Below, one piece after another: positions 8,766 to 55,522 of a stretch of 64,000 bases of DNA (position 1 is the first letter of the stretch; every line of letters starts with the position of its first letter). This DNA is from a virus. The notes under the pieces are model-generated. The model made no database searches. It worked only from the letters and a program-made list of their open reading frames with translations, and was not told where the DNA came from. The stretch is taken from positions 32,001 through 96,000 of the IMG/VR virus record IMGVR_UViG_3300042197_002234; one strand, given 5' to 3'. The position numbers and the translations under genes were made by a program.

Positions 8766-11700
8766 ATAATGGGTCATTACATTCGTTATAAACTAATGTG
8801 TATGTAAAATATCTAGGACCCGCATTAGTACCATCTGAGTTAAAACCAACTATAATGTTTGTGTTACATTCAAGTATTTCGTCCTGTAATGTAAGGGTAA
8901 AACAAGCCACGCCAGCGGCGTTAAATGAGGTAACATCACTTGCTATTTCAGTTATAGTAAATGTAGATGATGTTAAATCATCACATTCGTATTTAAAAAG
9001 ATATGCGGTTACACTATTAGCCAAACCATCAACAGGACTTGTTACAGTACCACACAATTTTATAGTTCCAGAACTTAACATGTCGATAGGTACTGGTACA
9101 CCTATAAATCCTTGTGTTCTGGTATCGAAGGGTGATATTCCATCCCAAGCGATATCCCAAGGACATCCATTCCAACCACAAGTATTATTGGCGATGTAAA
9201 CGTCAGTATCATTAGGTCCTTGTGTCCAACTACCTGAATTTGATGCTAATAAAAATTGTCTTTTAATGTTAATTGTTGCATCACCTGTAGTGCCTTCAAC
9301 AATACCACAAGACCCCGCAACTGTTAAACCTGTGACACTAGTTACCGTAGTAGCACCATCGGTGACAGTTAAAGAACCACCACCACTTGATGTACCCGAA
9401 CTACCCGAGGTTCCTGATGAACCTGTTTGACCTGCAGTACCTGAACTACCTGAACTACCACTTGAACCTGAGGTACCGCTAGCCCCACTAACACCACTTG
9501 TGCCCGCAGTTCCATTAGCTCCGCTAGTACCTGAAGTTCCTTTAGTTCCTGAGGTTCCACTAGACCCTGAAGTACCCGAACTACCTGAAGAACCACTTGA
9601 ACCTGATGTTCCACTTGTTCCTGAAGTACCGTTAACTCCTGAAGTACCACTTGTACCATTAACTCCTGAAGTACCACTTGTACCAATCGAACCATCACAA
9701 CCATTACAACATACTTTGAAACATAATACATCACCATAAGAGAATGGACTTGCGGAACTTGAAGATGCGAATATCGGACCTTCAATAAAGAAGGAAGTAG
9801 AATTCAATCTTCCAACACCAGACCAATCTGAATAGTGTACAAATTTTGTTGGGTCTGCTTGATTATATATTGTTAAATTTCCACCACAAATACATTTGTT
9901 GAAAACTTCATATTGATTTACACCATTGTTATCAAAATCATAGAAGTGTAAATATGTTGCTGCCGATACAGTTAACGTAGTTGCTGAAGAACCTGTGATA
10001 AACGCAAATTCACCATTAGAATCAGGAGTACTATCGTTTGTTAACGTATATGGTAAACAATAAGCTGATACCCCACTAGTTCCTGATGTTCCACTTGTTC
10101 CTGAACTACCTGACGTTCCTCTAGTTCCTGATGTTCCTGAAGAGCCGCTGCTGCCACTTGAGCCCGAAGAACCCGACGTTCCACTTGTTCCTGATGAACC
10201 ACTTGAACCTGAACTACCTGATGTTCCACTTGAACCTGAAGAACCTGAACTTCCTGATGAACCACTGCTACCACTAGTACCAGATGTACCCGAACTACCT
10301 GATGAACCACTTGAACCTGAAGAACCGCTACTTCCACTTGTGCCTGATGTACCTGAGCTACCTGATGTTCCGCTAGTTCCTGAACTACCTGATGAGCCGC
10401 TTGAACCTGACGAACCACTAGTGCCTGATGTTCCTGAAGAACCACTACTTCCACTAGAACCTGAACTTCCTGAAGAACCACTTGTGCCCGAAGTACCACT
10501 ACTTCCGCTAGACCCTGAACTTCCGCTCGAACCTGAAGTACCCGAAGAACCGCTACTACCGCTTGTTCCTGATGTTCCACTTGAGCCTGACGTTCCGCTA
10601 GTCCCTGAAGAACCACTTATACCTGAAGTTCCTGAACTACCTGATGTTCCTGAAGAGCCAGATGACCCCGAAGAACCTGAGCTACCTGATGAACCGCTAG
10701 ACCCACTTGTACCCGCAGTCCCTGAACTTCCTGATGTTCCACTTGTTCCTGATGAGCCACTTGTACCGCTCGAACCTGAGGAACCACTATTTCCACTTGA
10801 ACCCGACGTTCCACTTGTTCCTGAAGAACCACTACTACCGCTTGAGCCCGAGCTACCTGAAGTACCACTAGTTCCTGAACTTCCTGAAGAGCCGCTACTA
10901 CCACTTGACCCTGAAGAACCGCTACTACCGCTTGTTCCTGAAGTTCCACTATTTCCTGAAGAACCACTTGAACCACTACTACCGCTAGAACCCGATGTTC
11001 CACTAGTTCCTGAACTTCCTGAAGAGCCGCTACTACCACTTGACCCTGATGTTCCGCTAGTCCCTGAAGAACCTGAAGTACCACTTGTACCACTAGTTCC
11101 CGAACTACCTGATGAACCACTACTACCGCTAGAACCTGATGAACCGCTAGTTCCACTTGAACCTGAAGAGCCAGAACTTCCTGAAGAACCACTACTACCG
11201 CTCGAACCTGAACTACCTGATGTCCCACTTGTACCTGAAGAACCGCTTGTACCTGACGTGCCGCTTGAGCCTGATGACCCACTACTTCCTGAACTACCGC
11301 TAGAACCTGAAGTTCCTGAACTGCCAGAAGAACCACTACTACCGCTAGAACCTGAAGTTCCTGAAGAACCTGATGTTCCGCTAGTACCTGATGACCCTGA
11401 ACTTCCACTACTACCTGAAGAACCGCTTGTACCGCTAGTACCCGAACTACCTGAAGTTCCACTTGTTCCTGATGACCCTGAACTTCCACTACTACCGCTA
11501 GAACCTGATGTTCCACTAGTTCCCGAAGAGCCGCTTGTACCGCTTGTTCCTGAACTACCCGAAGAACCACTACTACCGCTTGAGCCCGAGCTACCTGAAG
11601 TTCCGCTTGTTCCTGACGAGCCGCTACTACCCGAACTTCCACTACTACCCGATGTTCCACTCGTTCCTGATGAGCCACTTGTGCCACTAGAACCTGAGCT

Positions 11701-14700
11701 ACCTGAAGAACCGCTAATTCCACTTGTTCCCGAAGAACCTGAACTTCCTGAAGAACCACTACTTCCTGATGTACCGCTAGTACCGCTAGTACCTGAACTA
11801 CCGCTAGAACCTGAACTTCCTGAAGAACCGCTGCTACCACTAGAGCCTGATGTGCCGCTAGTTCCCGAACTTCCACTTGTACCGCTAGTTCCTGAAGAAC
11901 CTGAACTACCACTAGAACCCGAAGCACCGCTTGTACCTGATGAGCCGCTTGAACCTGAAGAGCCTGATGAACCACTACTACCGCTAGTTCCTGATGTACC
12001 ACTTGACCCACTACTACCGCTTGAACCTGAACTTCCTGATGAGCCTGATGTACCGCTTGTTCCTGAAGAACCACTTGAGCCTGAACTTCCCGATGAACCA
12101 CTACTACCGCTAGTTCCTGATGAGCCACTACTACCACTTGTACCAGATGTACCTGAACTTCCTGAAGTACCACTAGTTCCTGATGTTCCCGAACTACCAC
12201 TCGTACCCGAACTTCCTGAAGAACCGCTAGTACCTGCAGTACCTGAAGAACCCGATGTTCCACTTGAACCTGAGCTACCTGATGAACCGCTACTACCGCT
12301 AGTTCCTGATGAACCACTAGTACCGCTAGTACCTGAACTACCGCTTGAACCTGAAGAACCACTACTTCCACTTGTGCCGCTAGTACCTACAGTTCCTGAT
12401 GAACCACTAGTACCGCTAGTACCTGAACTACCGCTTGAACCTGAAGAACCACTACTTCCACTAGTACCCGAAGTACCTGAACTTCCTGATGTACCGCTTG
12501 AGCCTGAACTACCCGATGTTCCACTAGTTCCTGAAGAACCACTAGACCCTGAACTACCTGAAGTTCCGCTAGTTCCTGAAGAACCTGATGTTCCGCTAGT
12601 TCCTGAAGAACCACTAGACCCTGAACTACCTGAAGTTCCGCTAGTTCCACTTGAGCCTGATGACCCTGAACTTCCACTACTACCTGAAGAACCACTTGTA
12701 CCGCTAGTACCCGAACTACCTGAAGTTCCACTTGTTCCTGAAGAGCCTGATGAACCACTACTACCGCTTGAGCCCGAGCTACCTGAAGAGCCGCTTGTTC
12801 CTGCAGTTCCTGAACTACCTGAAGAACCACTACTACCTGATGTTCCACTAGTTCCTGATGAACCACTTGTACCGCTAGTTCCACTTGAACCACTACTACC
12901 TGAAGTACCTGAAGAGCCACTAGACCCTGAACTTCCGCTACTACCGCTTGAACCCGATGTTCCACTTGTACCGCTAGTTCCTGATGTTCCTGAAGAACCT
13001 GATGTTCCGCTTGTTCCTGAACTACCTGATGAACCACTACTACCACTAGTCCCTGAAGTACCACTAGTTCCTGAAGTACCACTAGTTCCCGAACTTCCTG
13101 AAGACCCTGATGTTCCGCTAGTACCTACAGTACCTGATGTTCCTGAAGAACCACTTGTACCGCTTGTACCTGACGAACCACTAGACCCACTAGAACCTGA
13201 ACTACCACTTGTTCCTGAACTTCCTGAAGTCCCACTAGTACCTGATGAACCTGATGTTCCACTAGTTCCACTTGAACCTGAACTTCCTGAAGAGCCACTT
13301 GTACCGCTAGTTCCTGATGTTCCACTAGACCCTGAACTTCCTGATGAACCCGAAGTTCCACTAGTTCCTACAGTACCACTACTTCCGCTAGACCCTGAAC
13401 TTCCGCTCGAACCTGAAGTACCCGAAGAACCGCTACTACCGCTTGTTCCTGATGTACCTGACGAGCCTGATGTTCCACTAGACCCTGAACTTCCTGAAGT
13501 CCCACTAGTACCAGAACTTCCTGATGTTCCGCTAGTTCCTGAACTACCGCTTGTTCCTGATGTACCTGACGAGCCTGATGTTCCACTAGACCCTGAACTT
13601 CCTGATGTTCCGCTAGTACCACTTGTACCCACAGTTCCTGAGCTTCCTGACGTACCGCTTGAGCCTGAGCTTCCTGAAGTCCCACTAGTACCAGAACTTC
13701 CTGATGTTCCGCTAGTTCCTGATGAACCGCTTGAACCTGAGCTACCTGAAGAACCTGATGTTCCACTTGTACCCGAACTTCCTGAAGACCCTGAACTTCC
13801 ACTACTACCGCTAGAACCTGATGTTCCACTAGTTCCCGAAGAGCCGCTTGTACCGCTTGTTCCTGAAGTTCCACTTGAACCTGAAGTACCGCTAGAACCA
13901 GAAGAGCCGCTACTACCACTAGAACCTGATGTTCCACTTGTACCCGCAGTACCTGAGCTTCCTGATGAACCGCTACTACCTGATGAGCCACTTGTACCGC
14001 TTGTTCCTGAACTACCCGAAGAACCACTACTACCGCTAGAACCTGATGTTCCACTTGTACCCGAAGTACCTGAGCTTCCTGACGTTCCACTAGTTCCCGA
14101 AGAACCACTAGACCCTGAAGAGCCTGAACTACCTGAAGTTCCACTAGTTCCTGATGAGCCACTTGTGCCCGAAGTTCCACTTGAACCTGAACTTCCTGAT
14201 GAACCGCTACTACCTGATGTCCCACTTGTACCTGAAGAACCACTAGTTCCTGATGAACCACTACTACCACTTGTACCAGATGTACCTGAACTACCACTTG
14301 TACCTGATGTTCCTGAAGAACCGCTTGACCCTGAAGAACCTGAGCTACCTGAAGTTCCGCTTGTTCCCGAAGAGCCTGATGTACCACTTGTGCCTGAAGT
14401 TCCACTTGAACCTGAACTTCCTGATGAACCTGACGTACCGCTAGTTCCTGAAGAACCACTACTTCCGCTTGAACCTGAGGTTCCACTTGTACCTACAGTC
14501 CCTGATGTACCTGAACTACCTGATGTTCCGCTACTTCCACTAGAACCTGAACTTCCGCTTGTTCCTGATGTTCCTGAACTACCACTTGTACCGCTAGTTC
14601 CTGATGAACCACTTGAACCCGAACTTCCTGATGAACCACTACTACCGCTAGTACCATTAGTTCCACTTGTTCCCGAAGAACCTGATGTTCCACTTGACCC

Positions 14701-17700
14701 ACTACTACCACTTGTACCTGATGTTCCTGAAGAACCGCTTGACCCTGAAGAACCTGAGCTACCTGAAGTTCCGCTTGTACCGCTTGTTCCCGAACTTCCT
14801 GATGTACCGCTAGTTCCTGAAGAACCACTTGTTCCTGAAGTTCCACTTGAACCTGAACTTCCTGATGAGCCACTACTACCGCTTGAACCTGAGGAACCGC
14901 TACTACCGCTAGTTCCTGATGAACCACTACTTCCACTAGAACCTGATGTTCCGCTAGTACCTGAACTACCGCTCGAGCCTGATGTACCGCTAGTACCCGA
15001 ACTACCTGATGAACCACTACTACCACTTGAACCTGAGCTACCTGATGTTCCGCTAGTTCCAGAAGAACCACTAGACCCTGAACTTCCACTACTTCCTGAT
15101 GAACCTGATGTTCCACTAGTACCTACAGTCCCACTTGAGCCAGATGTACCCGAACTACCTGACGAACCACTAGAACCTGAACTACCACTTGTTCCGCTAG
15201 TTCCTGATGTTCCACTTGTTCCTGAAGTCCCACTAGTACCTGATGAACCTGATGTTCCACTTGTTCCCGAAGAGCCTGATGTACCACTTGAGCCTGAACT
15301 ACCAGAAGACCCCGATGTACCACTACTTCCACTTGTGCCGCTAGTTCCTGATGAACCATCTGTTCCACTAGTACCTGAGCTACCTGAAGTGCCGCTAGTT
15401 CCTGATGAACCACTTGACCCTGATGTTCCGCTAGTTCCTGAAGTTCCGCTAATACCCGAAGTACCACTTGTACCGCTAGTACCTGATGTTCCTGAAGAAC
15501 CATCAGTTCCACTTGTTCCTGAAGTACCACTACTACCATCTGTTCCTGATGTTCCACTTGACCCTGATGTACCCGAAGTTCCTGAGCTACCATCAGTACC
15601 TGAAGTTCCGCTTGAACCCGATGTTCCTGATGAACCACTAGTTCCTGATGAACCACTAGTTCCTGATGAACCACTAGTTCCGCTAGTTCCTGATGAGCCA
15701 TCAGTACCACTACTACCGTCTGTACCACTAGAACCTGATGTTCCGTTAGTTCCACTTGTACCATTACTACCGTCAGTACCTGAACTCCCACTAGAACCTG
15801 ATGTTCCGCTAGTTCCACTTGTACCATTACTACCGTCAGTACCTGAAGTTCCGCTTGTTCCCGAACTACCACTAGTACCTGATGTTCCACTAGTTCCTGA
15901 CGAACCACTGCTACCACTAGTACCTGATGTGCCATTACTACCATCAGTTCCTGATGAACCTGAAGTTCCACTAGTTCCGCTACTACCATCTGTTCCGCTT
16001 GTTCCTGAAGTACCGCTTGAACCTGATGTTCCACTTGTTCCTGAAGTACCGCTTGAACCTGAAGTTCCACTTGTTCCTGAAGAACCTGAGGTACCACTAC
16101 TTCCGTCAGTACCGCTACTACCATCTGTTCCGCTTGTTCCCGATGAACCACTTATACCTGAAGTACCGCTACTACCATCTGTTCCACTAGTTCCTGAAGT
16201 ACCACTACTACCATCAGTTCCGCTAGTTCCACTTGTTCCTGATGAACCATCTGTTCCGCTAGTTCCGCTTGAACCTGAAGTTCCGCTAGTTCCCGAAGAA
16301 CCTGATGTACCACTAGTACCACTACTACCATCTGTTCCTGATGTACCACTAGTTCCTGAAGTACCATTACTTCCATCAGTTCCGCTTGAACCTGATGTAC
16401 CACTTGTTCCTTTAGAACCATTTACACCGCTAATACCTGAAGAACCTGATGTACCATTAGTTCCTGAAGTTCCACTTGTTCCTGATGAACCATCTGTTCC
16501 GCTAGTTCCACTTGAACCATCTGTTCCGCTAGTTCCACTTGTTCCTGATGAACCGCTTGTTCCTGAGGTTCCACTTGTTCCAGAACTTCCATCAGTACCA
16601 CTTGTTCCTGAAGTTCCTGATGAACCATCTGTTCCGCTAGTACCTGATGTTCCTGAAGAGCCATCCGTTCCGCTATTACCCGAAGTTCCCGATGAACCAT
16701 CTGTTCCTGAATTTCCGCTAGTTCCCGATGAACCATCTGTTCCTGAAGTTCCGCTAGTTCCGCTTGAACCATCTGTTCCTGAAGTTCCGCTAGTTCCGCT
16801 TGAACCATCCGTACCTGAAGTTCCACTAGTTCCCGATGAACCATCTGTACCTGAAGTTCCACTAGTTCCCGATGAACCATCCGTTCCGCTAGTACCCGAA
16901 GTTCCCGATGAACCATCCGTTCCGCTAGTACCACTAGTTCCTGATGAACCATCTGTTCCGCTAGTACCACTAGTTCCTGATGAACCATCTGTTCCTGACG
17001 TACCACTAGTTCCTGATGAACCATCTGTTCCACTGGTTCCTGAAGAACCGCTTGTCCCACTACTACCATCCGTACCTGAACTACCACTTGTTCCTGAAGT
17101 GCCGCTACTACCATCAGTACCTGAAGTTCCACTAGTACCACTTGAGCCATCAGTACCTGATGAACCATCCGTACCACTAGTACCACTAGTTCCTGAAGTT
17201 CCGCTTGAACCTGATGTTCCACTAGTTCCTGAAGTACCATTACTTCCGTCAGTTCCGCTTGAACCTGATGTTCCACTAGTTCCTGAACTTCCATCAGTAC
17301 CACTTGTTCCTGAAGAACCATCAGTTCCGCTAGTACCTGAAGTTCCACTTGTTCCTGAAGAACCGTCTGTCCCACTAAAACCACTTGTCCCTGAAGTTCC
17401 ATTTGAACCATCTGTACCTGAAGTACCACTTGTTCCTGAAGAACCACTAGTACCCGAAGAACCGTCAGTTCCGCTTGAACCTGATGTGCCGCTACTACCA
17501 TCAGTCCCTGAACTACCATCAGTCCCTGAACTACCATCAGTCCCTGAACTACCATCAGTCCCTGAACTACCTGACGTACCACTAGTTCCTGATGTACCAT
17601 TAGAACCATCCACACCACTTATTCCTGAAGAACCTGAAGAACCACTTGTTCCTGAAGAACCGTTTGTCCCACTAGAACCACTTGTCCCTGAACTTCCATC

Positions 17701-18795
17701 TGTACCACTAGAACCACTTGTCCCTGAACTTCCATCTGTACCACTAGTACCACTTGTTCCTGAAGAACCGTCTGTTCCACTCGAGCCACTTGTTCCTGAA
17801 GAACCGTCTGTTCCACTAGAGCCACTTGTGCCTGAACTTCCATCTGTTCCTGACGAACCATCAGTACCTGAACTTCCACTTGTCCCTGAACTTCCATCCG
17901 TACCTGATGAACCATCAGTACCTGAACTTCCTGAAGAACCACTAGTTCCTGAACTACCATCAGTACCTGAACTTCCATCAGTTCCGCTTGTACCTGAAGA
18001 ACCACTTGTACCTGAAGAACCACTTGTACCTGAACTTCCGCTTGTTCCTGATGAACCTGAAGTTCCTGATGAACCACTTGAGCCTGAACTTCCTGATGTA
18101 CCTGAACTTCCTGATGTACCGCTAGTTCCTGATGACCCACTTGAACCTGAAGTTCCGCTTGTTCCTGAACTACCATCTTGACCGCTAGTCCCTGATGTAC
18201 CATCTTGACCGCTAGTACCTGAACTACCATTTGTACCTGAAGACCCACTACTTCCGCTAGACCCTGAACTACCGCTACTACCTGAACTACCGCTACTACC
18301 TGAACTTCCTGAAGTTCCACTAGTACCTGAACTACCATCTTGACCGCTAGTCCCTGATGTGCCATCTTGACCGCTAGTACCTGAACTACCTGGAGAGCCA
18401 GTACCGCTTGTTCCCGAAGACCCACTACTACCTGGAGAGCCAGTACCGCTTGTTCCCGAAGACCCACTACTACCTGAAGTTCCTGACGAACCACTATTTC
18501 CACTTAAACCTGAACTACCTGAAGTACCGCTACTACCCGAAGACCCACTTGTACCTGAACTACCATCAGTACCTGATGTGCCATCAACACCACTTGTTCC
18601 TGAGCTACCGTCAATACCACTTGTTCCTGAAGTTCCACCTAAAGCCAAAGCATCTGCAACTTGTTTTATGGTTGCTTTATATGATGAGCCTGCAGGATTT
18701 TGGGAAGTGTCCCCTGTTATTACTATGTGGATTACGTCGTTTTCCGAAACTCCTGTTGCTAGTACCCTGTCTGTAAGTCTTTGATAATTCGGCAT
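8764..18795 (-). CDS. Giant (3343 aa) Gly-X-Y Ser/Thr-rich repeat protein, probable virion fibre or appendage
   Basis: ATG at 18795, TAA at 8764-8766. About 50 aa of unique N-terminus, about 2850 aa of GSS/GTS/GTD triplets, a Cys-containing domain, a second short triplet run and about 200 aa of globular C-terminus. TATTTATA motif 12 nt upstream. Confidence 0.9.
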   Translation of the reverse strand: MPNYQRLTDRVLATGVSENDVIHIVITGDTSQNPAGSSYKATIKQVADALALGGTSGTSGIDGSSGTSGVDGTSGTDGSSGTSGSSGSSGTSGSSGLSGNSGSSGTSGSSGSSGTSGTGSPGSSGSSGTSGTGSPGSSGTSGQDGTSGTSGQDGSSGTSGTSGSSGSSGSSGSSGSSGSSGSSGSSGTNGSSGTSGQDGTSGTSGQDGSSGTSGTSGSSGSSGTSGTSGSSGTSGSSGSSGSSGTSGSSGTSGSSGTSGSSGTSGSSGTSGTDGSSGTDGSSGTSGSSGSSGTDGSSGTDGSSGTSGSSGTDGSSGTDGSSGTSGSSGTDGSSGTSGSSGTDGSSGTSGTSGTDGSSGTSGSSGTDGSSGTSGSSGTNGSSGTSGSSGSSGISGVDGSNGTSGTSGTSGSSGTDGSSGTDGSSGTDGSSGTDGSSGTSGSSGTDGSSGTSGSSGTSGTSGTDGSNGTSGTSGFSGTDGSSGTSGTSGTSGTDGSSGTSGTDGSSGTSGTSGSSGTDGSNGTSGTSGTSGSSGTSGTSGTSGTDGSSGTDGSSGTSGTSGTDGSSGTSGTSGSSGTDGSSGTSGSSGTSGTDGSSGTSGTSGTDGSSGTSGTSGTDGSSGTSGTSGTDGSSGTSGTSGTDGSSGTSGTSGTDGSSGTSGTSGTDGSSGTSGTSGTDGSSGTSGTSGTDGSSGTSGNSGTDGSSGTSGNSGTDGSSGTSGTSGTDGSSGTSGTSGTDGSSGTSGTSGTSGSSGTSGTSGTDGSSGTSGTDGSSGTSGTSGTNGTSGSSGISGVNGSKGTSGTSGSSGTDGSNGTSGTSGTSGTDGSSGTSGTSGSSGTSGTSGSSGTSGTDGSSGTSGTSGTDGSSGTSGTSGTDGSSGTSGISGSSGTSGTDGSSGTDGSSGTSGSSGTSGTSGSSGTSGTSGTSGSSGTSGTSGTDGSSGTSGTSGSSGTDGSNGTSGTSGSSGSSGTSGTSGTSGSSGTSGTSGTDGSNGTSGTSGTSGSSGSSGTDGSNGTSGTNGTSGSSGTDGSSGTDGSSGTSGTSGSSGTSGSSGTSGSSGTSGSSGTSGTDGSSGTSGTSGSSGTSGTDGSSGTSGTSGTDGSSGTSGTSGTSGTSGISGTSGTSGTSGSSGSSGTSGTSGSSGTSGTDGSSGTSGTSGSSGTSGSSGSSGSSGTSGSSGTSGTSGSSGTSGTSGTSGTSGTSGTSGSSGSSGSSGSSGTSGSSGTVGTSGTSGSSGSSGSSGSSGSSGTSGTSGSSGSSGSSGSSGSSGTSGTSGSSGSSGTSGTSGSSGSSGSSGTSGSSGSSGSSGSSGSSGSSGSSGTSGTSGSSGTSGTSGSSGTSGTSGTSGSSGSSGSSGSSGTSGTSGSSGSSGTSGSSGTSGTNGTSGSSGSSGSSGSSGSSGTSGTSGSSGTSGTSGSSGSSGSSGTSGSSGTSGTVGTSGTSGSSGSSGSSGTSGTSGSSGSSGSSGTSGTSGTSGSSGTSGTSGSSGSSGSSGSSGTSGTSGSSGTSGTSGSSGSSGTSGSSGTSGTSGSSGSSGSSGSSGTSGTSGSSGTSGTSGSSGSSGSSGSSGTSGTSGSSGTSGTSGTSGSSGSSGSSGSSGTSGTSGSSGSSGSSGSSGTAGTSGTSGSSGSSGSSGSSGTSGSSGTSGTSGTSGSSGTSGTSGSSGSSGSSGSSGSSGTSGTSGSSGSSGSSGSSGTSGTSGSSGTSGTSGSSGSSGTSGSSGTVGTSGTSGTSGSSGSSGTSGSSGTSGTSGSSGTSGTSGSSGTSGTSGSSGSSGTSGSSGTSGTSGSSGSSGTSGSSGSSGSSGSSGTVGTSGTSGSSGSSGSSGTSGTSGTSGSSGSSGSSGTSGTSGSSGTSGTSGSSGTSGSSGSSGSSGSSGTSGTSGSSGTSGTVGTSGTSGSSGSSGTSGTSGTSGTSGTSGSSGSSGSSGTSGTSGSSGTSGTSGTSGTSGSSGSSGSSGSSGSSGTSGSSGSSGTSGTSGSSGTSGTSGSSGSSGSSGTAGTSGSSGSSGSSGSSGSSGSSGTSGTSGSSGTSGTSGSSGSSGSSGSSGSSGTSGTSGSSGSSGSSGTSGTSGSSGTSGTSGSSGSSGSSGTSGTSGSSGSSGTSGSSGTSGTSGSSGSSGSSGSSGTSGTSGSSGTVGTSGTSGSSGSSGSSGSSGTSGTSGSSGTSGSSGSSGSSGSSGTSGSSGTAGTSGSSGSSGTSGSSGTSGTSGTSGSSGTSGTSGSSGSSGTSGSSGSSGSSGSSGSSGTSGTSGSSGSSGSSGSSGSSGTSGTSGSSGSSGSSGSSGSSGTSGASGSSGSSGSSGTSGTSGSSGTSGTSGSSGSSGSSGSSGSSGSSGTSGTSGTSGSSGSSGSSGSSGTSGISGSSGSSGSSGTSGSSGTSGTSGSSGSSGSSGSSGTSGTSGSSGSSGSSGSSGSSGTSGTSGSSGTSGTSGSSGSSGSSGSSGTSGTSGSSGTSGTSGSSGSSGSSGSSGTSGTSGSSGTSGSSGSSGSSGSSGTSGSSGSSGSSGSSGSSGTSGTSGSSGTSGTSGSSGSSGSSGSSGSSGSSGSSGTSGSSGSSGSSGSSGSSGTSGTSGTSGSSGTSGTSGSSGSSGSSGSSGTSGTSGSSGSSGSSGSSGNSGTSGTSGSSGSSGSSGSSGSSGSSGTSGTSGSSGSSGSSGSSGTSGTSGSSGNSGSSGSSGTSGSSGTSGTSGSSGTAGTSGSSGSSGSSGSSGSSGSSGTSGSSGTSGISGSSGTSGTSGSSGTSGTSGSSGSSGTSGSSGSSGSSGSSGTSGTSGSSGSSGSSGSSGSSGTSGTSGSSGSSGSSGSSGTSGTSGSSGTSGTSGSSGSSGSSGSSGSSGTSGTSGSSGSSGSSGSSGSSGTSGSSGSSGSSGTSGTSGSSGSSGSSGSSGTSGTRGTSGSSGTSGTSGTSGVSAYCLPYTLTNDSTPDSNGEFAFITGSSATTLTVSAATYLHFYDFDNNGVNQYEVFNKCICGGNLTIYNQADPTKFVHYSDWSGVGRLNSTSFFIEGPIFASSSSASPFSYGDVLCFKVCCNGCDGSIGTSGTSGVNGTSGTSGVNGTSGTSGTSGSSGSSGSSGTSGSSGTSGTKGTSGTSGANGTAGTSGVSGASGTSGSSGSSGSSGTAGQTGSSGTSGSSGTSSGGGSLTVTDGATTVTSVTGLTVAGSCGIVEGTTGDATINIKRQFLLASNSGSWTQGPNDTDVYIANNTCGWNGCPWDIAWDGISPFDTRTQGFIGVPVPIDMLSSGTIKLCGTVTSPVDGLANSVTAYLFKYECDDLTSSTFTITEIASDVTSFNAAGVACFTLTLQDEILECNTNIIVGFNSDGTNAGPRYFTYTLVYNECNDPL
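10070..18630 (-). repeat. Degenerate 9-nt-period coding repeat (Gly-Ser/Thr-Ser/Asp triplets) with exact sub-duplications
   Basis: Gly at every third residue. Exact 84-nt copy at 10492-10575 = 13372-13455; 72-nt copy at 12301-12372 = 12391-12462; 42-nt tandem near 18390-18474. Confidence 0.95.
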
Positions 18796-51540: not shown

Positions 51541-52281
51541 TTATGAGGTTAAATATTTGTCCAAATCAGCATCAGTTGGTACTGAAGCTTTTGGTTTAGT
51601 TGTTCCTGCGGTCGCACCAGATGAAGCTGCGGTTTTAAATTCTTTATCATTACAAGTGTAGTTTAATACTTGCTTTGTTGTAATGTCACCTTTTCTTCCA
51701 TTACCAAAGTATCTAAAATTACCAATAACAAATGAACCATTTGATTCCATTTTAATACGCTTCTTATTGGCTAATGTTGGTACACATGGGAAATTTTTGA
51801 ATGTTTCCTCAGCACTTTTTGAAGCCGCTGGTGCTGGGGTTACTTTAGGTACAGTAATTTTAATTGAATTTTCTTTAAAAATATCATTACCACTACTATC
51901 AACATCATCTTGGTAGGTCATTGTAATTCCAATACTTTTTAGGTGATTATAAATTTGTTCAACGTAACTTAAATCGTCGGTACCAAACTCACCATTCAAT
52001 ATATTAACAATTGTTATATACTCACCCATACCATAAGCGGGAATTAAACCATTAACCAAATTAAACATATTACCGTCTTTAATTTCCTGTATTGCAGCAA
52101 CAATTGCGTCCTCATCAGTACCCATACCTACAGCCGCTTTAGCCATTTTGGCAGCAATTCTTTTAGCTGATTTGGTTAATTCATCACTTTGTTCGGTTAA
52201 ATATTGATTTTTTGTGGCAGTTTCATGAAGATTTAAAATTCTATTTCTCTCATCTTCATTTATTAAAAATAAATTTTTCAT
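51541..52281 (-). CDS. Protein with an INE/LTE-type leader and an annexin-like repeat
   Basis: AAKMAKAAVGMGTDEDAIVAAI...IVNILNGEFG compared with the annexin consensus A-x-x-L-x-K-A-M-K-G-x-G-T-D-E-x-x-I-I...L-x-x-E-L-S. Confidence 0.65.
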   Translation of the reverse strand: MKNLFLINEDERNRILNLHETATKNQYLTEQSDELTKSAKRIAAKMAKAAVGMGTDEDAIVAAIQEIKDGNMFNLVNGLIPAYGMGEYITIVNILNGEFGTDDLSYVEQIYNHLKSIGITMTYQDDVDSSGNDIFKENSIKITVPKVTPAPAASKSAEETFKNFPCVPTLANKKRIKMESNGSFVIGNFRYFGNGRKGDITTKQVLNYTCNDKEFKTAASSGATAGTTKPKASVPTDADLDKYLTS

Positions 52282-52331
52282 TTTTTACTAGTTTTTATTA
52301 TATAAATATCACACAATCCAAAAAAAAGTCG

Positions 52332-52339
52332 TATCTTTG
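52332..52339 (+). promoter_or_regulatory. Bacteroidota -7 promoter element
   Basis: TATCTTTG equals TAnnTTTG. No clear -33 TTTG. No ORF downstream, only a structured element. Confidence 0.55.
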
Positions 52340-52343
52340 TATT

Positions 52344-52453
52344 GTAATTAAAGGAAACGATTCAGATACAAGATATTTAATTACGTTGTCAGGGCGAAAG
52401 AATCCTGATTTAAACAGGGAAGGAACGATTCAGATACAACCCCCTGTTTTTTT
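52344..52453 (+). ncRNA. Candidate ~110-nt structured small RNA with three hairpins
   Basis: Stems 52344-52352/52376-52384, 52389-52393/52404-52408 and 52412-52419/52442-52449, then a T-run. An identical 16-mer AACGATTCAGATACAA lies in loops 1 and 3. Confidence 0.55.
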
Positions 52454-52865
52454 ACACCCAAATTACAACTTGGTCTTTACCAACCCTAAATGGATTGTCA
52501 TATGATTCCCTAAAAACTGTTGTAATATATAGTTTCCAATATAAACCCATTTCTTGGTTTGGAACTACTGACATAGCCATTGCCTTTTCGGGTGATTTAA
52601 TAACAAAGGCCTCGCCTTCAGTAATGTCTCCTGATATAATTTTTTCAGCAATTTCATTTCTTGCTTGTTGAACAATATAACTTATTTCACCATTAGAGAT
52701 TTCTCTCTCGTCATAATTTTCAATACCCTCTCTTTTTCTTCTAAGGTAGGCGTGGTGTGTTCTGTCAATATCAAATGCAAAGGTAACTTCGATATTTGCT
52801 GATATTTGAGCAATCCTTTTTTCTAACAAAAGAGATTCCTTGATTAATTGACGTAATAGATTCAT
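52452..52865 (-). CDS. Hypothetical protein with an IKE/LLE leader; possible small RNase-type (BECR-like) fold
   Basis: THHAYLRRKRE...ISNGEI...YITTVF weakly recalls the DUF4258/colicin-E5-like pattern HA-x-x-R...I-T-V-Y. Confidence 0.55.
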   Translation of the reverse strand: MNLLRQLIKESLLLEKRIAQISANIEVTFAFDIDRTHHAYLRRKREGIENYDEREISNGEISYIVQQARNEIAEKIISGDITEGEAFVIKSPEKAMAMSVVPNQEMGLYWKLYITTVFRESYDNPFRVGKDQVVIWV

Positions 52866-52885
52866 TACATATAAATACTTTTAAA

Positions 52886-53563
52886 CTAAGTTTTGTTTGA
52901 TTTTCGAATATTTTCCTCGCCCCACAATGGTTGGAGGTTTTCTAATGACCAACATTTCATAAATTCTTCGTCCCCAATTTCTACTATATTATGGACAGAA
53001 ATGGGTGTTATATGGTCAACATGCCAATCACCATAGTTATCCCATGTCATACCGTCTTTAAATTGTTTTTCTAAGTGATTAATAAGTTCTTCAGGTGTAT
53101 ATTTTAGAATATCAAAATAATGTCCGTTTTTTTGAACATTGTTTTCTTTTAATACCTGATAAATAGCGGTTCTAAAATTATTGATTAGTTTATAGATGGG
53201 GTCAGTATCTTTACGATGTTTTTCGTACTTACGTTTATAATCTCTATGTTTATCAATATTTTTTTCTCTCCATTGTTTATGATACTCATTAAGACGTTCT
53301 CTATTTTCTTTAGACCATTTTTGGTGACTTTCTGAAAGTCGTGTTTTATTTTTTTCTCTATATTTTTTATCGGCAACTTTTTTACCGCCTAAAAACTTTC
53401 TTCCACTACCTTTAATAACCACCCCATTTTCTTTTAATATTCTACTTATGGTAAAAGTGGACCAATTAAATTTTTCAGATATTTCGCGTAATCCTTTAAG
53501 TTCATCGACAAACATTACTTTAATTTCATTAATTTCTTTCTCAGTTGGGGTAATCTTTTTCAT
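52886..53563 (-). CDS. Free-standing HNH-type homing endonuclease with an N-terminal HTH
   Basis: WHVDHITP...CWSLENLQPLWGEENIRKSNK. Start placed at MKKIT, 5 nt after TATTTAT. Confidence 0.8.
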   Translation of the reverse strand: MKKITPTEKEINEIKVMFVDELKGLREISEKFNWSTFTISRILKENGVVIKGSGRKFLGGKKVADKKYREKNKTRLSESHQKWSKENRERLNEYHKQWREKNIDKHRDYKRKYEKHRKDTDPIYKLINNFRTAIYQVLKENNVQKNGHYFDILKYTPEELINHLEKQFKDGMTWDNYGDWHVDHITPISVHNIVEIGDEEFMKCWSLENLQPLWGEENIRKSNKT

Positions 53564-53617
53564 ATAATATAAATATAATATATTATTACAAAAAAACAAC
53601 TATTTAATTTTATATAT

Positions 53618-53668: not shown

Positions 53669-55522
53669 TTATCTCAATTCTCTTAAATCAAATGTACGAA
53701 CTCCATCAACGGTAATACGTGCGTAGAAGCGGTTGTTCACCATTTTTTTCGCGTATCTCGTCATTATACCTTTTATTGGAGTAAAGTTAAATGGATTGTA
53801 CATTGTAGGAGTTAATTGTAGAGGTACATACGGTGCGTAGATGTAACCTGTGTCTAACAATGACGTTCCTTTGTGTCCAATTAACACTTGGTTAGCTGGG
53901 AAGTAAGGGTCACGGTAAACTTGGTAACGACCTGCTAATGTACCAACTCTTTCAATACCCATGTTGTATTGGTCTTGCTCAGGAGATGCGTTAGATACGT
54001 GGAAGTATTCTAAATCATCAAAGATTGCAGAAACCTCAGATGATACAACAATCCAGTTAGCTCCACCACGAAGTGTTGACTTGTGAATTTGAGCTGACAA
54101 TTGGTTGATAGCTGTAATCAATGTTTGGTTCCAGTCTTTCTGAGTGTAAGAAGTAGTTTGAGAAATTCTTCTCCAACCGTTGTAGTCCCAACGTAGGTTC
54201 CAAGCCGCACCTTTACGTAAGTCACGTAAAATTTCACGGTCAATCTCAGCTGCTACTTGCTCAGATAACAATGCTGTTAACTCAGCTTCAGCGTCGATGT
54301 TATGGAATGCTGCTACGTCTTGAGCCAATTCAGGAGACCATTGTGCTCTTAGTTTTCTTTCTGTTACAGAAACTGTAACTGACTCAAGGTCGAAAGAAAC
54401 TTCACCAATTTTGTCTTCGAATTCTAACTCTTCGTAACGTCTCCATGCTGCGTAGAATGAACTTGAAGTTAAACCTGTCGAAATTGTAGTACCAGTGTAA
54501 CCATCCAAAGATGTTGAGTTACAATCAGCACATACTGGACAAGATAAATCTACTTCCAAGTAAATACAACCATCTGCAGAACAGATATTTTTAAATGAAC
54601 CACCATTACCTGTTGAAGGCCATGATGTAGTTACTGTGTTACCGTATTGAACGATACCTTGACCATATTGTTGAGTAACAACTCTGAACAACAATGGACC
54701 TGTAGATACTGTACAAGGTGAGCCTTCAGCAACTGTTAAACCAGCACCTGTAAAGATAATTAAGTTAGACAAGAACTCTTCTGTGTCCATTTCATTACCA
54801 TTAGGTCCGATTAATTTACCAGCACCTGTGTCAGCGAAACCACACATTTTAACGATAACTTTTCTTGTGTTACCTGAAGCGATAAGACCACTACCATCAG
54901 TTGTACCCGAAATAATCGCATCTTCTAAGTTACCGTTACTCCATTTTTGGATTGAGGTTGTTGCTGTGATAGCTGACCAACGACCTTTAGAATAATCGAA
55001 TAAACCTGCTGGGTCTAAACCTGGTTCAGTTCCTTCGTAGAATAAATCGTAAAGGTTTTTAGAGAATGGTGCTCCACTGTTATAACCCGCTGCTGGGTCA
55101 CCAGGATAGTTACCAGGAGAACCTACAGGTGCGTAGTGGTCACCTGAAGATACATCACTCCACTGAGTGTTAGTACCACCACTGTAACCTTGAATTTTAG
55201 GTACGAAGTAGAACAATTTACCGATAGGTAAGTTCATTGCTTGTACAGAAACGATATCGTTTGCTAACAACTTAGAAAACACACGTCTAACGATTGGGAA
55301 AACCACAGTTTCAAAAGAACCTGAAGAACCGTCAGAAGTTGCTTCGTTAATCAAGAAGCTAGCTTGGTTTTCATAAAGCTGAGCTACGTTTTCTTTTAGG
55401 TGGCCTTTAAGACCTTCAAGGAACCCTAATTTGTCCCATTTGTTAATTGTATCTTCTTTGATAACTTTAAGGTGCTTAAGACCGATGTTACCAACAAGAC
55501 CTGATTCTAATAATGCTCCCAT
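53669..55522 (-). CDS. gp23: Major capsid protein, T4 gp23-like, with a large insertion
   Basis: VQAMNLPIGKLFY, RKLRAQWSPELAQD, LSEQVAAEIDREI, YAPYVPL, FTPIKGIMTRYA. Confidence 0.95.
   Translation of the reverse strand: MGALLESGLVGNIGLKHLKVIKEDTINKWDKLGFLEGLKGHLKENVAQLYENQASFLINEATSDGSSGSFETVVFPIVRRVFSKLLANDIVSVQAMNLPIGKLFYFVPKIQGYSGGTNTQWSDVSSGDHYAPVGSPGNYPGDPAAGYNSGAPFSKNLYDLFYEGTEPGLDPAGLFDYSKGRWSAITATTSIQKWSNGNLEDAIISGTTDGSGLIASGNTRKVIVKMCGFADTGAGKLIGPNGNEMDTEEFLSNLIIFTGAGLTVAEGSPCTVSTGPLLFRVVTQQYGQGIVQYGNTVTTSWPSTGNGGSFKNICSADGCIYLEVDLSCPVCADCNSTSLDGYTGTTISTGLTSSSFYAAWRRYEELEFEDKIGEVSFDLESVTVSVTERKLRAQWSPELAQDVAAFHNIDAEAELTALLSEQVAAEIDREILRDLRKGAAWNLRWDYNGWRRISQTTSYTQKDWNQTLITAINQLSAQIHKSTLRGGANWIVVSSEVSAIFDDLEYFHVSNASPEQDQYNMGIERVGTLAGRYQVYRDPYFPANQVLIGHKGTSLLDTGYIYAPYVPLQLTPTMYNPFNFTPIKGIMTRYAKKMVNNRFYARITVDGVRTFDLRELR

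Follow-up and report, generated by a model that had tools for sequence, protein, structure and literature searches.

A small-RNA family displaying a nearly fixed hairpin loop beside a putative RelE/RegB-like ribonuclease gene of a freshwater jumbo phage

The source of the sequence is a freshwater jumbo phage whose virus record has a length of 195.5 kb and a G+C content of 31.6%, and the window analyzed here is a 64,000-nt stretch of that record. A T4-like capsid gene lies at window positions 53669-55522, and the closest cultured capsids are only ~41 to 43% identical to its product. The RNA complement of the genome comprises 25 tRNAs, a tmRNA missed by ARAGORN (L119 6109-6506, plus strand), a GOLLD RNA (L119 7554-7962, minus strand), and a freshwater-1 RNA (L120 3753-3815, minus strand). 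TAnnTTTG promoters point to a Bacteroidota host. Near-leaderless mRNAs are predicted genome-wide, many genes following TATTTATA at a distance of 3 to 5 nt or TAnnTTTG at one of 4 nt, and a Shine-Dalgarno-like word was found for only 4 of 186 long ORFs. The genome also contains a very long Ser/Gly/Thr-rich coding repeat with 9-nt periodicity (window ~9400-18300) and near-tandem duplications with a spacing of 65 to 66 nt at G000 174801 and 176706. The locus under study consists of a predicted small RNA and a gene that converges on it, with the following features (window coordinates).

52332-52339, plus strand: promoter element of the small RNA, of the Bacteroidota -7 type (TAnnTTTG), with the letters TATCTTTG, read from the sequence
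52344-52453, plus strand: predicted ~110-nt three-hairpin small RNA, from fold, covariation, and model R1 (5' end inferred)
52344-52384, plus strand: hairpin 1, with a 9-bp stem and a 23-nt loop, from the fold; three pairs with two-sided change
52356-52371, plus strand: loop motif copy 1, an identical 16-mer, with column counts over 196 hairpin copies
52388-52409, plus strand: hairpin 2, with a YGAAA-type loop; five of six pairs with two-sided change
52412-52453, plus strand: hairpin 3 (52412-52449) and U-run, terminator-like and also displaying the loop; eight of eight pairs with two-sided change
52424-52439, plus strand: loop motif copy 2, a 16-mer identical to copy 1
52447-52453, plus strand: run of seven T residues, overlapping the stop codon (52452-52454) of the convergent gene
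52452-52865, minus strand: gene for a 137-aa protein with a weak RelE/RegB (BECR)-like fold, from model, fold search, and homologs
52870-52877, minus strand: promoter motif of late type, TATTTATA, 4 nt upstream of the start codon of the RNase gene

Folding of positions 52344-52455 (-21.8 kcal/mol; z, -1.9) yields exactly these three hairpins and leaves the two 16-mers single stranded. When the intergenic gap was shuffled 20,000 times, a duplicated 12-mer of any kind arose in just 47 cases. The promoter of the small RNA shows no obvious -33 TTTG box, and the 22-nt loop of hairpin 3 exceeds what a simple terminator scan accepts. The promoter element, the three hairpins, the T-run, and both identical 16-mers all lie where the original prediction had placed them. 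Its description of each 16-mer as preceded by AAGG is right as to the presence of that word and inexact for copy 1, which follows AAGGA rather than AAGG directly. The element had also been described as free of ORFs; a 97-codon TTG frame (52212-52505, plus strand) does cross it, and since the loop-to-loop spacing is 67, 68, or 69 among homologs, i.e., differs by 1- to 2-nt indels, this frame is not a conserved gene. Promoter, fold, and covariation predict an independently transcribed RNA, which would be expressed early judging from its promoter.

Covariation was assessed in a sequence-only alignment of 24 phage three-hairpin homologs, with slid structures serving as the control. In this alignment, 85% of the cells were paired, compared with ≤52% for the slid controls, which all three helices exceeded, and 16 of 23 pairs showed two-sided change, counts that may be inflated by relatedness of the sequences. 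RNAalifold returned no consensus for alignment A2, probably because of indels in the A/U-rich stems. The loop, with the consensus AAC(G/A)ATT(C/T/A)AGATAC, is nearly fixed in 196 hairpin copies carried on varied stems, and its core varies mainly at two positions (G/A and C/T/A); the search that retrieved these copies permitted one mismatch, so the constancy is partly built in. Among the matches listed for the exact 16-mer in viral contigs, a large share lies in hairpin loops right behind Bacteroidota promoters. Of 113 distinct copies, 83 have the first loop 16 to 20 nt past the promoter element, compared with 7 in the reverse orientation. A search of Rfam 15 with gathering and E-value thresholds assigned the small RNA to no family (CRISPR repeats, FopS, drum, skipping-rope, and freshwater-1/2 included), the best match being a chance snoRNA with an E value of 1, and a literature search for the motif letters returned unrelated primers only. 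These comparisons argue for a real, uncatalogued, and conserved small-RNA family whose stems serve as scaffolds for a fixed loop, and the selection for single-stranded display proposed for this locus is supported by stems that covary around loops that do not. In the distant homolog L566, the RNA is arranged in the same way but its loop is changed, with an A-U to C-G swap inside it; going by this one variant, the loop may fold as a mini-stem capped by U-(C/U/A)-A-G.

The loop is used as a module. Relatives carry one, two, three, or four loops, with or without hairpin 2, which is absent from two-loop forms with a spacing of 39 to 48 nt; the bivalent display originally proposed therefore describes the two loops at this locus and is not essential to the family. 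Single promoter-hairpin units, often ended by a U-run, occur in tRNA clusters and also in GOLLD leaders; in these leaders they are an optional element, other promoters there being without them (L019 and L020). The phage’s own genome has two single loop units ahead of GOLLD, and the 635-kb phage LR745206.1 has three stand-alone promoter-hairpin-U-run units distant from its RNase gene. Outside the window, the 16-mer occurs twice more, at G000 108432-108447 and 108693-108708 on the minus strand, which gives a total of four copies in 195 kb, each within a hairpin. Display in 5' hairpins, terminators, and stand-alone units speaks for action in trans rather than for a cis switch.

The GOLLD leader contains other noncoding sequence. 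About 450 nt of dense noncoding sequence separate the second loop hairpin from the Rfam GOLLD match, and an unannotated ~110-nt element (L119 8550-8655, minus strand, equivalent to G000 108549-108654) lies between two GOLLD-leader hairpins. This element has no Rfam match, recurs in L096, and is 78% identical to a noncoding stretch of Flavobacterium phages FpV4 and relatives (E value, 3e-15), which makes it a candidate RNA open to tests with a phage in culture. Several look-alikes were excluded from the motif copies, namely coding matches in terminase and nuclease genes and a 24-nt minisatellite in metagenome contigs, which fills large parts of the 22%-GC contigs L508, L518, and L464, up to 709 kb in length. 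A BLAST match in Lak phages was rejected since it covers the promoter only, and a Clostridia intergenic hairpin with the same letters represents a single orthologous locus and is probably due to chance.

A scan of 185,579 prokaryote genomes returned mostly chance matches together with some real-looking hairpin copies in Bacteroidota mobile islands and metagenome-assembled genomes (MAGs). Islands with resolvase, integrase, and RadC genes in the Bacteroidota MAGs L273, L317, L327, and L336 carry one to four loop hairpins, and the L336 array is almost identical to the phage arrays L141 and L186. A Saprospira-labeled MAG carries two paralogous two-hairpin RNAs 1.9 kb apart (L326 6400-6480 and L334 340-420), and in each of them a GACGTCA loop precedes a terminator loop that holds the motif. 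No RNase homolog was found in the five bacterial MAGs with real-looking hairpin copies, which are incomplete. As for a core host RNA, motif matches were found in 42 of 401 Bacteroidota genomes, which is the control level, and in 2 of 101 genomes of the family of the Saprospira MAG. An obligatory link to a 159-aa island gene was rejected because the homologs of this gene are mostly without the motif.

The convergent gene encodes a 137-aa protein that has no family or Pfam match. Its predicted structure (pLDDT, 80) matched many RelE-family toxins, a CdiA RNase, and BrnT, all weakly (Z, 3.5 to 5.2), as well as T4 RegB, also weakly (Z, 4.0); RelE-family folds predominate among these matches, at Z scores (≤5.2) that leave room for other folds. 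An atlas fold search with the protein returned unnamed viral clusters only, and a DUF4258 match was obtained only below the cut-off, in a distant homolog. Residues His38, Thr116, and Glu15, the last of which lies in the N-terminal leader, are conserved in ≥90% of 52 distant homologs. The leader ends L-L-E, like those of neighboring head-cargo candidates, and a late-type TATTTAT word lies ≤25 nt from the RNase start in 50 of 74 homologs. On the basis of the structure model and the leader, the protein is a putative RNase that is probably packaged in the head, and the combination of a late promoter and a head-loading leader suggests that it probably enters the host along with the injected DNA. 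Between the capsid and RNase genes lies an HNH/endonuclease VII-like gene (window 52886-53599), which is optional and absent in many relatives.

The motif RNA is tail-to-tail with the RNase gene in 34 of 43 distinct homologs fetched by protein; six of the remainder have another structured RNA, one is at a contig end, and two are without an RNA. In the reverse test, the RNase gene lies right behind the RNA in 53 of 73 tandem-loop metagenome loci, many of the others being cut by contig ends, and the two large motif-bearing genomes tested both also encode an RNase-family protein. The pair persists although its neighbors belong to ~29 families next to the RNA and to ~26 next to the RNase gene, which indicates a cassette-like unit rather than passive synteny. 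These counts support a strong genetic tie between the small-RNA family and the RelE/RegB-like gene, as had been suspected from the convergent arrangement at the single locus. Exceptions occur in both directions. The RNA is kept where the RNase gene has been lost from the site in L584, L587, L466, and L033 (16 to 37% complete fragments), and the RNase gene is found without an adjacent RNA in LR745206.1 (L345) and L429; the 95% complete genome G406 has only a distant RNase homolog (E value, 3e-6), with no RNA beside it. A different RNA of ~140 nt, probably pseudoknotted, lies tail-to-tail downstream of the RNase gene in L411, L420, L258, L434, L435, L436, and L568. It has a GGTGAAA stem-loop resembling hairpin 2, with a similar hairpin in L411, L258, and L434, and the loop motif has no copy in four records bearing it. 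The RNase-gene tree, which is quick and poorly resolved, does not tell whether this alternative RNA arose once.

CsrB/RsmZ-type sponges are multivalent protein binders that expose the same short motif in several hairpin loops. The phage RNA has the same display on unrelated stems, whereas its motif is 16 to 19 nt long, does not keep GGA, and is phage borne. Type III toxin-antitoxin (TA) RNAs (ToxI, CptI, TenpI, and antiQ; PMC5086642) and phage pseudo-ToxI (PMC3475682) are alike in having a repeated unit, a variable copy number, a terminator, and a genetic tie to a small endoribonuclease gene. However, type III systems form one operon on one strand and their repeats are tandem pseudoknots, whereas the arrangement here is convergent in all linked cases, with separate promoters, and the repeats are plain hairpins whose stems are unrelated, as the covariation indicates. 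The type III toxins (ToxN, CptN, and TenpN) are MazF-like, while the top structural matches of the 137-aa protein are of RelE type, at weak scores (Z, ≤5.2) and without a Pfam match, and the phage loop also occurs as dispersed mini-genes. In operon layout and repeat structure, the small RNA thus falls outside the type III antitoxins; by analogy, it may nevertheless work like one of them or like a CsrB-type sponge. The layout also corresponds to that of a type I system in that the predicted 3' end, the U-run, overlaps the RNase stop codon at 52452-52454.

The drum, skipping-rope, and DUF3800-I RNA motifs (Weinberg 2017, PMC5737381) are likewise terminated and associated with one nearby protein family in either orientation, but they have complex folds and different protein families, whereas the phage RNA consists of simple hairpins with one repeated loop. 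T4 RegB (PMC3014915) also comes from a T4-like phage, has a RelE-like fold (Z, 4.0), and possibly recognizes a long single-stranded motif, the likeness to the 137-aa protein being one of weak fold match without demonstrated sequence homology. regB, however, belongs to the early genes and has no known RNA partner, whereas the phage gene combines a promoter of late type with a leader resembling those of head cargo. FopS/GibS of Bacteroides, which are bound by RbpB (PMC11697453), are likewise multicopy Bacteroidota small RNAs sharing one motif; identity with the FopS/RbpB system was rejected because FopS has a single-stranded 5' mRNA-pairing seed and is core in Bacteroidaceae, whereas the phage RNA is neither core nor an Rfam match. 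A solitary CRISPR repeat mimic (Racr), the crRNA mimic of the original prediction, finds no counterpart in the data: no CRISPR repeat in Rfam was matched, the genome matches include no array or repeat-spacer layout, and the stems vary freely.

The original prediction had offered a protein decoy and an RNA antitoxin or inhibitor among several functions, and these are now the leading, if unproven, readings. The explanation that we tentatively prefer, and which falls a little short of probable, is that the linked putative RNase, a late and probably head-packaged protein, is the target of the small RNA, which would act on it as a multivalent decoy or inhibitor. The RNase would be made late from its own promoter, loaded into the head by its leader, and injected with the DNA, whereupon it would cut host RNA. 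The small RNA, made from a host-type promoter soon after entry, would then serve, in multivalent form, as a mimic of the enzyme’s substrate or as an inhibitor, either turning the enzyme off or protecting phage RNA. Its dose would be increased by the further single-hairpin units found at the strong tRNA and GOLLD promoters. The stems would merely hold out the fixed loop of ~16 to 19 nt for protein binding, most likely by the RelE/RegB-like ribonuclease. Escherichia coli RelE has been reported to cut CAG/UAG codons (PMC7180214), and the loop contains the same CAG/UAG triplet, which is a resemblance only. A fuller scenario, in which a RegB/RelE-like RNase injected from the phage head is shut off by a portable substrate-mimic loop, supplied both from arrays next to its gene and from ~45-nt mini-genes at the strongest promoters, and some bacterial mobile islands have captured the loop as an RNA-based immunity to the injected enzyme, is unlikely.

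The main alternative is that the loop, like a CsrB-type sponge or pseudo-ToxI, serves to decoy a protein of the Bacteroidota host, for instance a nuclease used in defense or a regulator that binds RNA, with the RNase being a coselected neighbor in a host-takeover cassette rather than the ligand. We regard this as doubtful. It would fit the stand-alone units far from the RNase gene (LR745206.1 and tRNA clusters), the hairpins in bacterial islands (resolvase, integrase, and RadC) and Saprospira-labeled MAGs in which no RNase was found, and the constancy of the loop while the RNase diverges to ~45% identity, as a conserved host ligand predicts. However, it leaves unexplained why the multiloop form, despite dozens of rearrangements, has kept its place on the stop codon of the RNase gene, the sampled genomes yielded no core host RNA with the loop (42/401, at control level, and 2/101), and the island-gene homologs mostly do not carry the motif. 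An antisense role, either in cis against the 3' end of the RNase mRNA in a type I-like manner or in trans through a seed against a phage or host mRNA, accords with the convergent layout that places the terminator on the RNase stop codon, with wobble pairing at the G/A and C/U positions, and with one 15/16 complement within the thyA coding sequence of the phage. It is nonetheless improbable: cis pairing needs no fixed or repeated loop, the A variant at the C/U position breaks pairing, and the LR745206.1 hairpins persist though the RNase mRNA there is without a complementary loop. The antisense seed proposed at the outset found no target in five related phage records or 401 host-phylum genomes, the thyA match being at about chance level (rough estimate, 0.1) and not recurring as a target in related phages.

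Still less probable is that the loop is a cleavage site of the RegB-like RNase, which would mature tRNA and GOLLD precursors while the small RNA tunes or times the enzyme. Loops do occur in GOLLD leaders and between tRNA genes (e.g., L233 and L004), and RegB may recognize a long single-stranded motif (PMC3014915), but the hairpins are dispensable in GOLLD leaders (L019 and L020) and many units stop at a U-run, behind which there is nothing that could be matured. Mimicry of the 790 loop of 16S rRNA, by which a ribosome factor such as IF3 would be titrated in favor of near-leaderless phage mRNAs, is very improbable; the two loops can be aligned by inserting a single base, and many genes begin 3 to 5 nt after a promoter motif, yet 11 to 14% of shuffled motifs match 16S rRNA equally, which is chance level, and a literature search found no paper on such mimicry. 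A site acting at the DNA level, i.e., an operator or a nut/boxB-like antitermination site, is the least probable. It draws on the fixed distance of the first loop from the promoter and on a word after the loop in the genome’s GOLLD leader that we take to resemble boxA. Against it, the stems covary, one copy lies inside a terminator with no gene downstream, and none of the only four copies per genome is at an early protein-gene promoter; the operator scattered over many promoters that had been envisaged is not what was found, since every copy is in a hairpin and the first loops are in the sense orientation 16 to 20 nt past a promoter.

Should the loop bind a host protein, it would be a bait for a Bacteroidota factor that is targeted by jumbo phages and mobile islands alike. 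The preferred reading can be reduced to a hairpin of ~45 nt, the minimal unit, and a 137-aa protein, which makes the idea directly testable in laboratory strains of E. coli or Flavobacterium. To our knowledge, nuclease-binding RNA antitoxins are known for only a few toxin folds, and an RNA inhibitor of a RelE/RegB-fold enzyme, if true, would be new. It would also be a partner of the type that was once postulated for RegB of T4, an anti-RegB having been raised as a possibility (PMC3014915).
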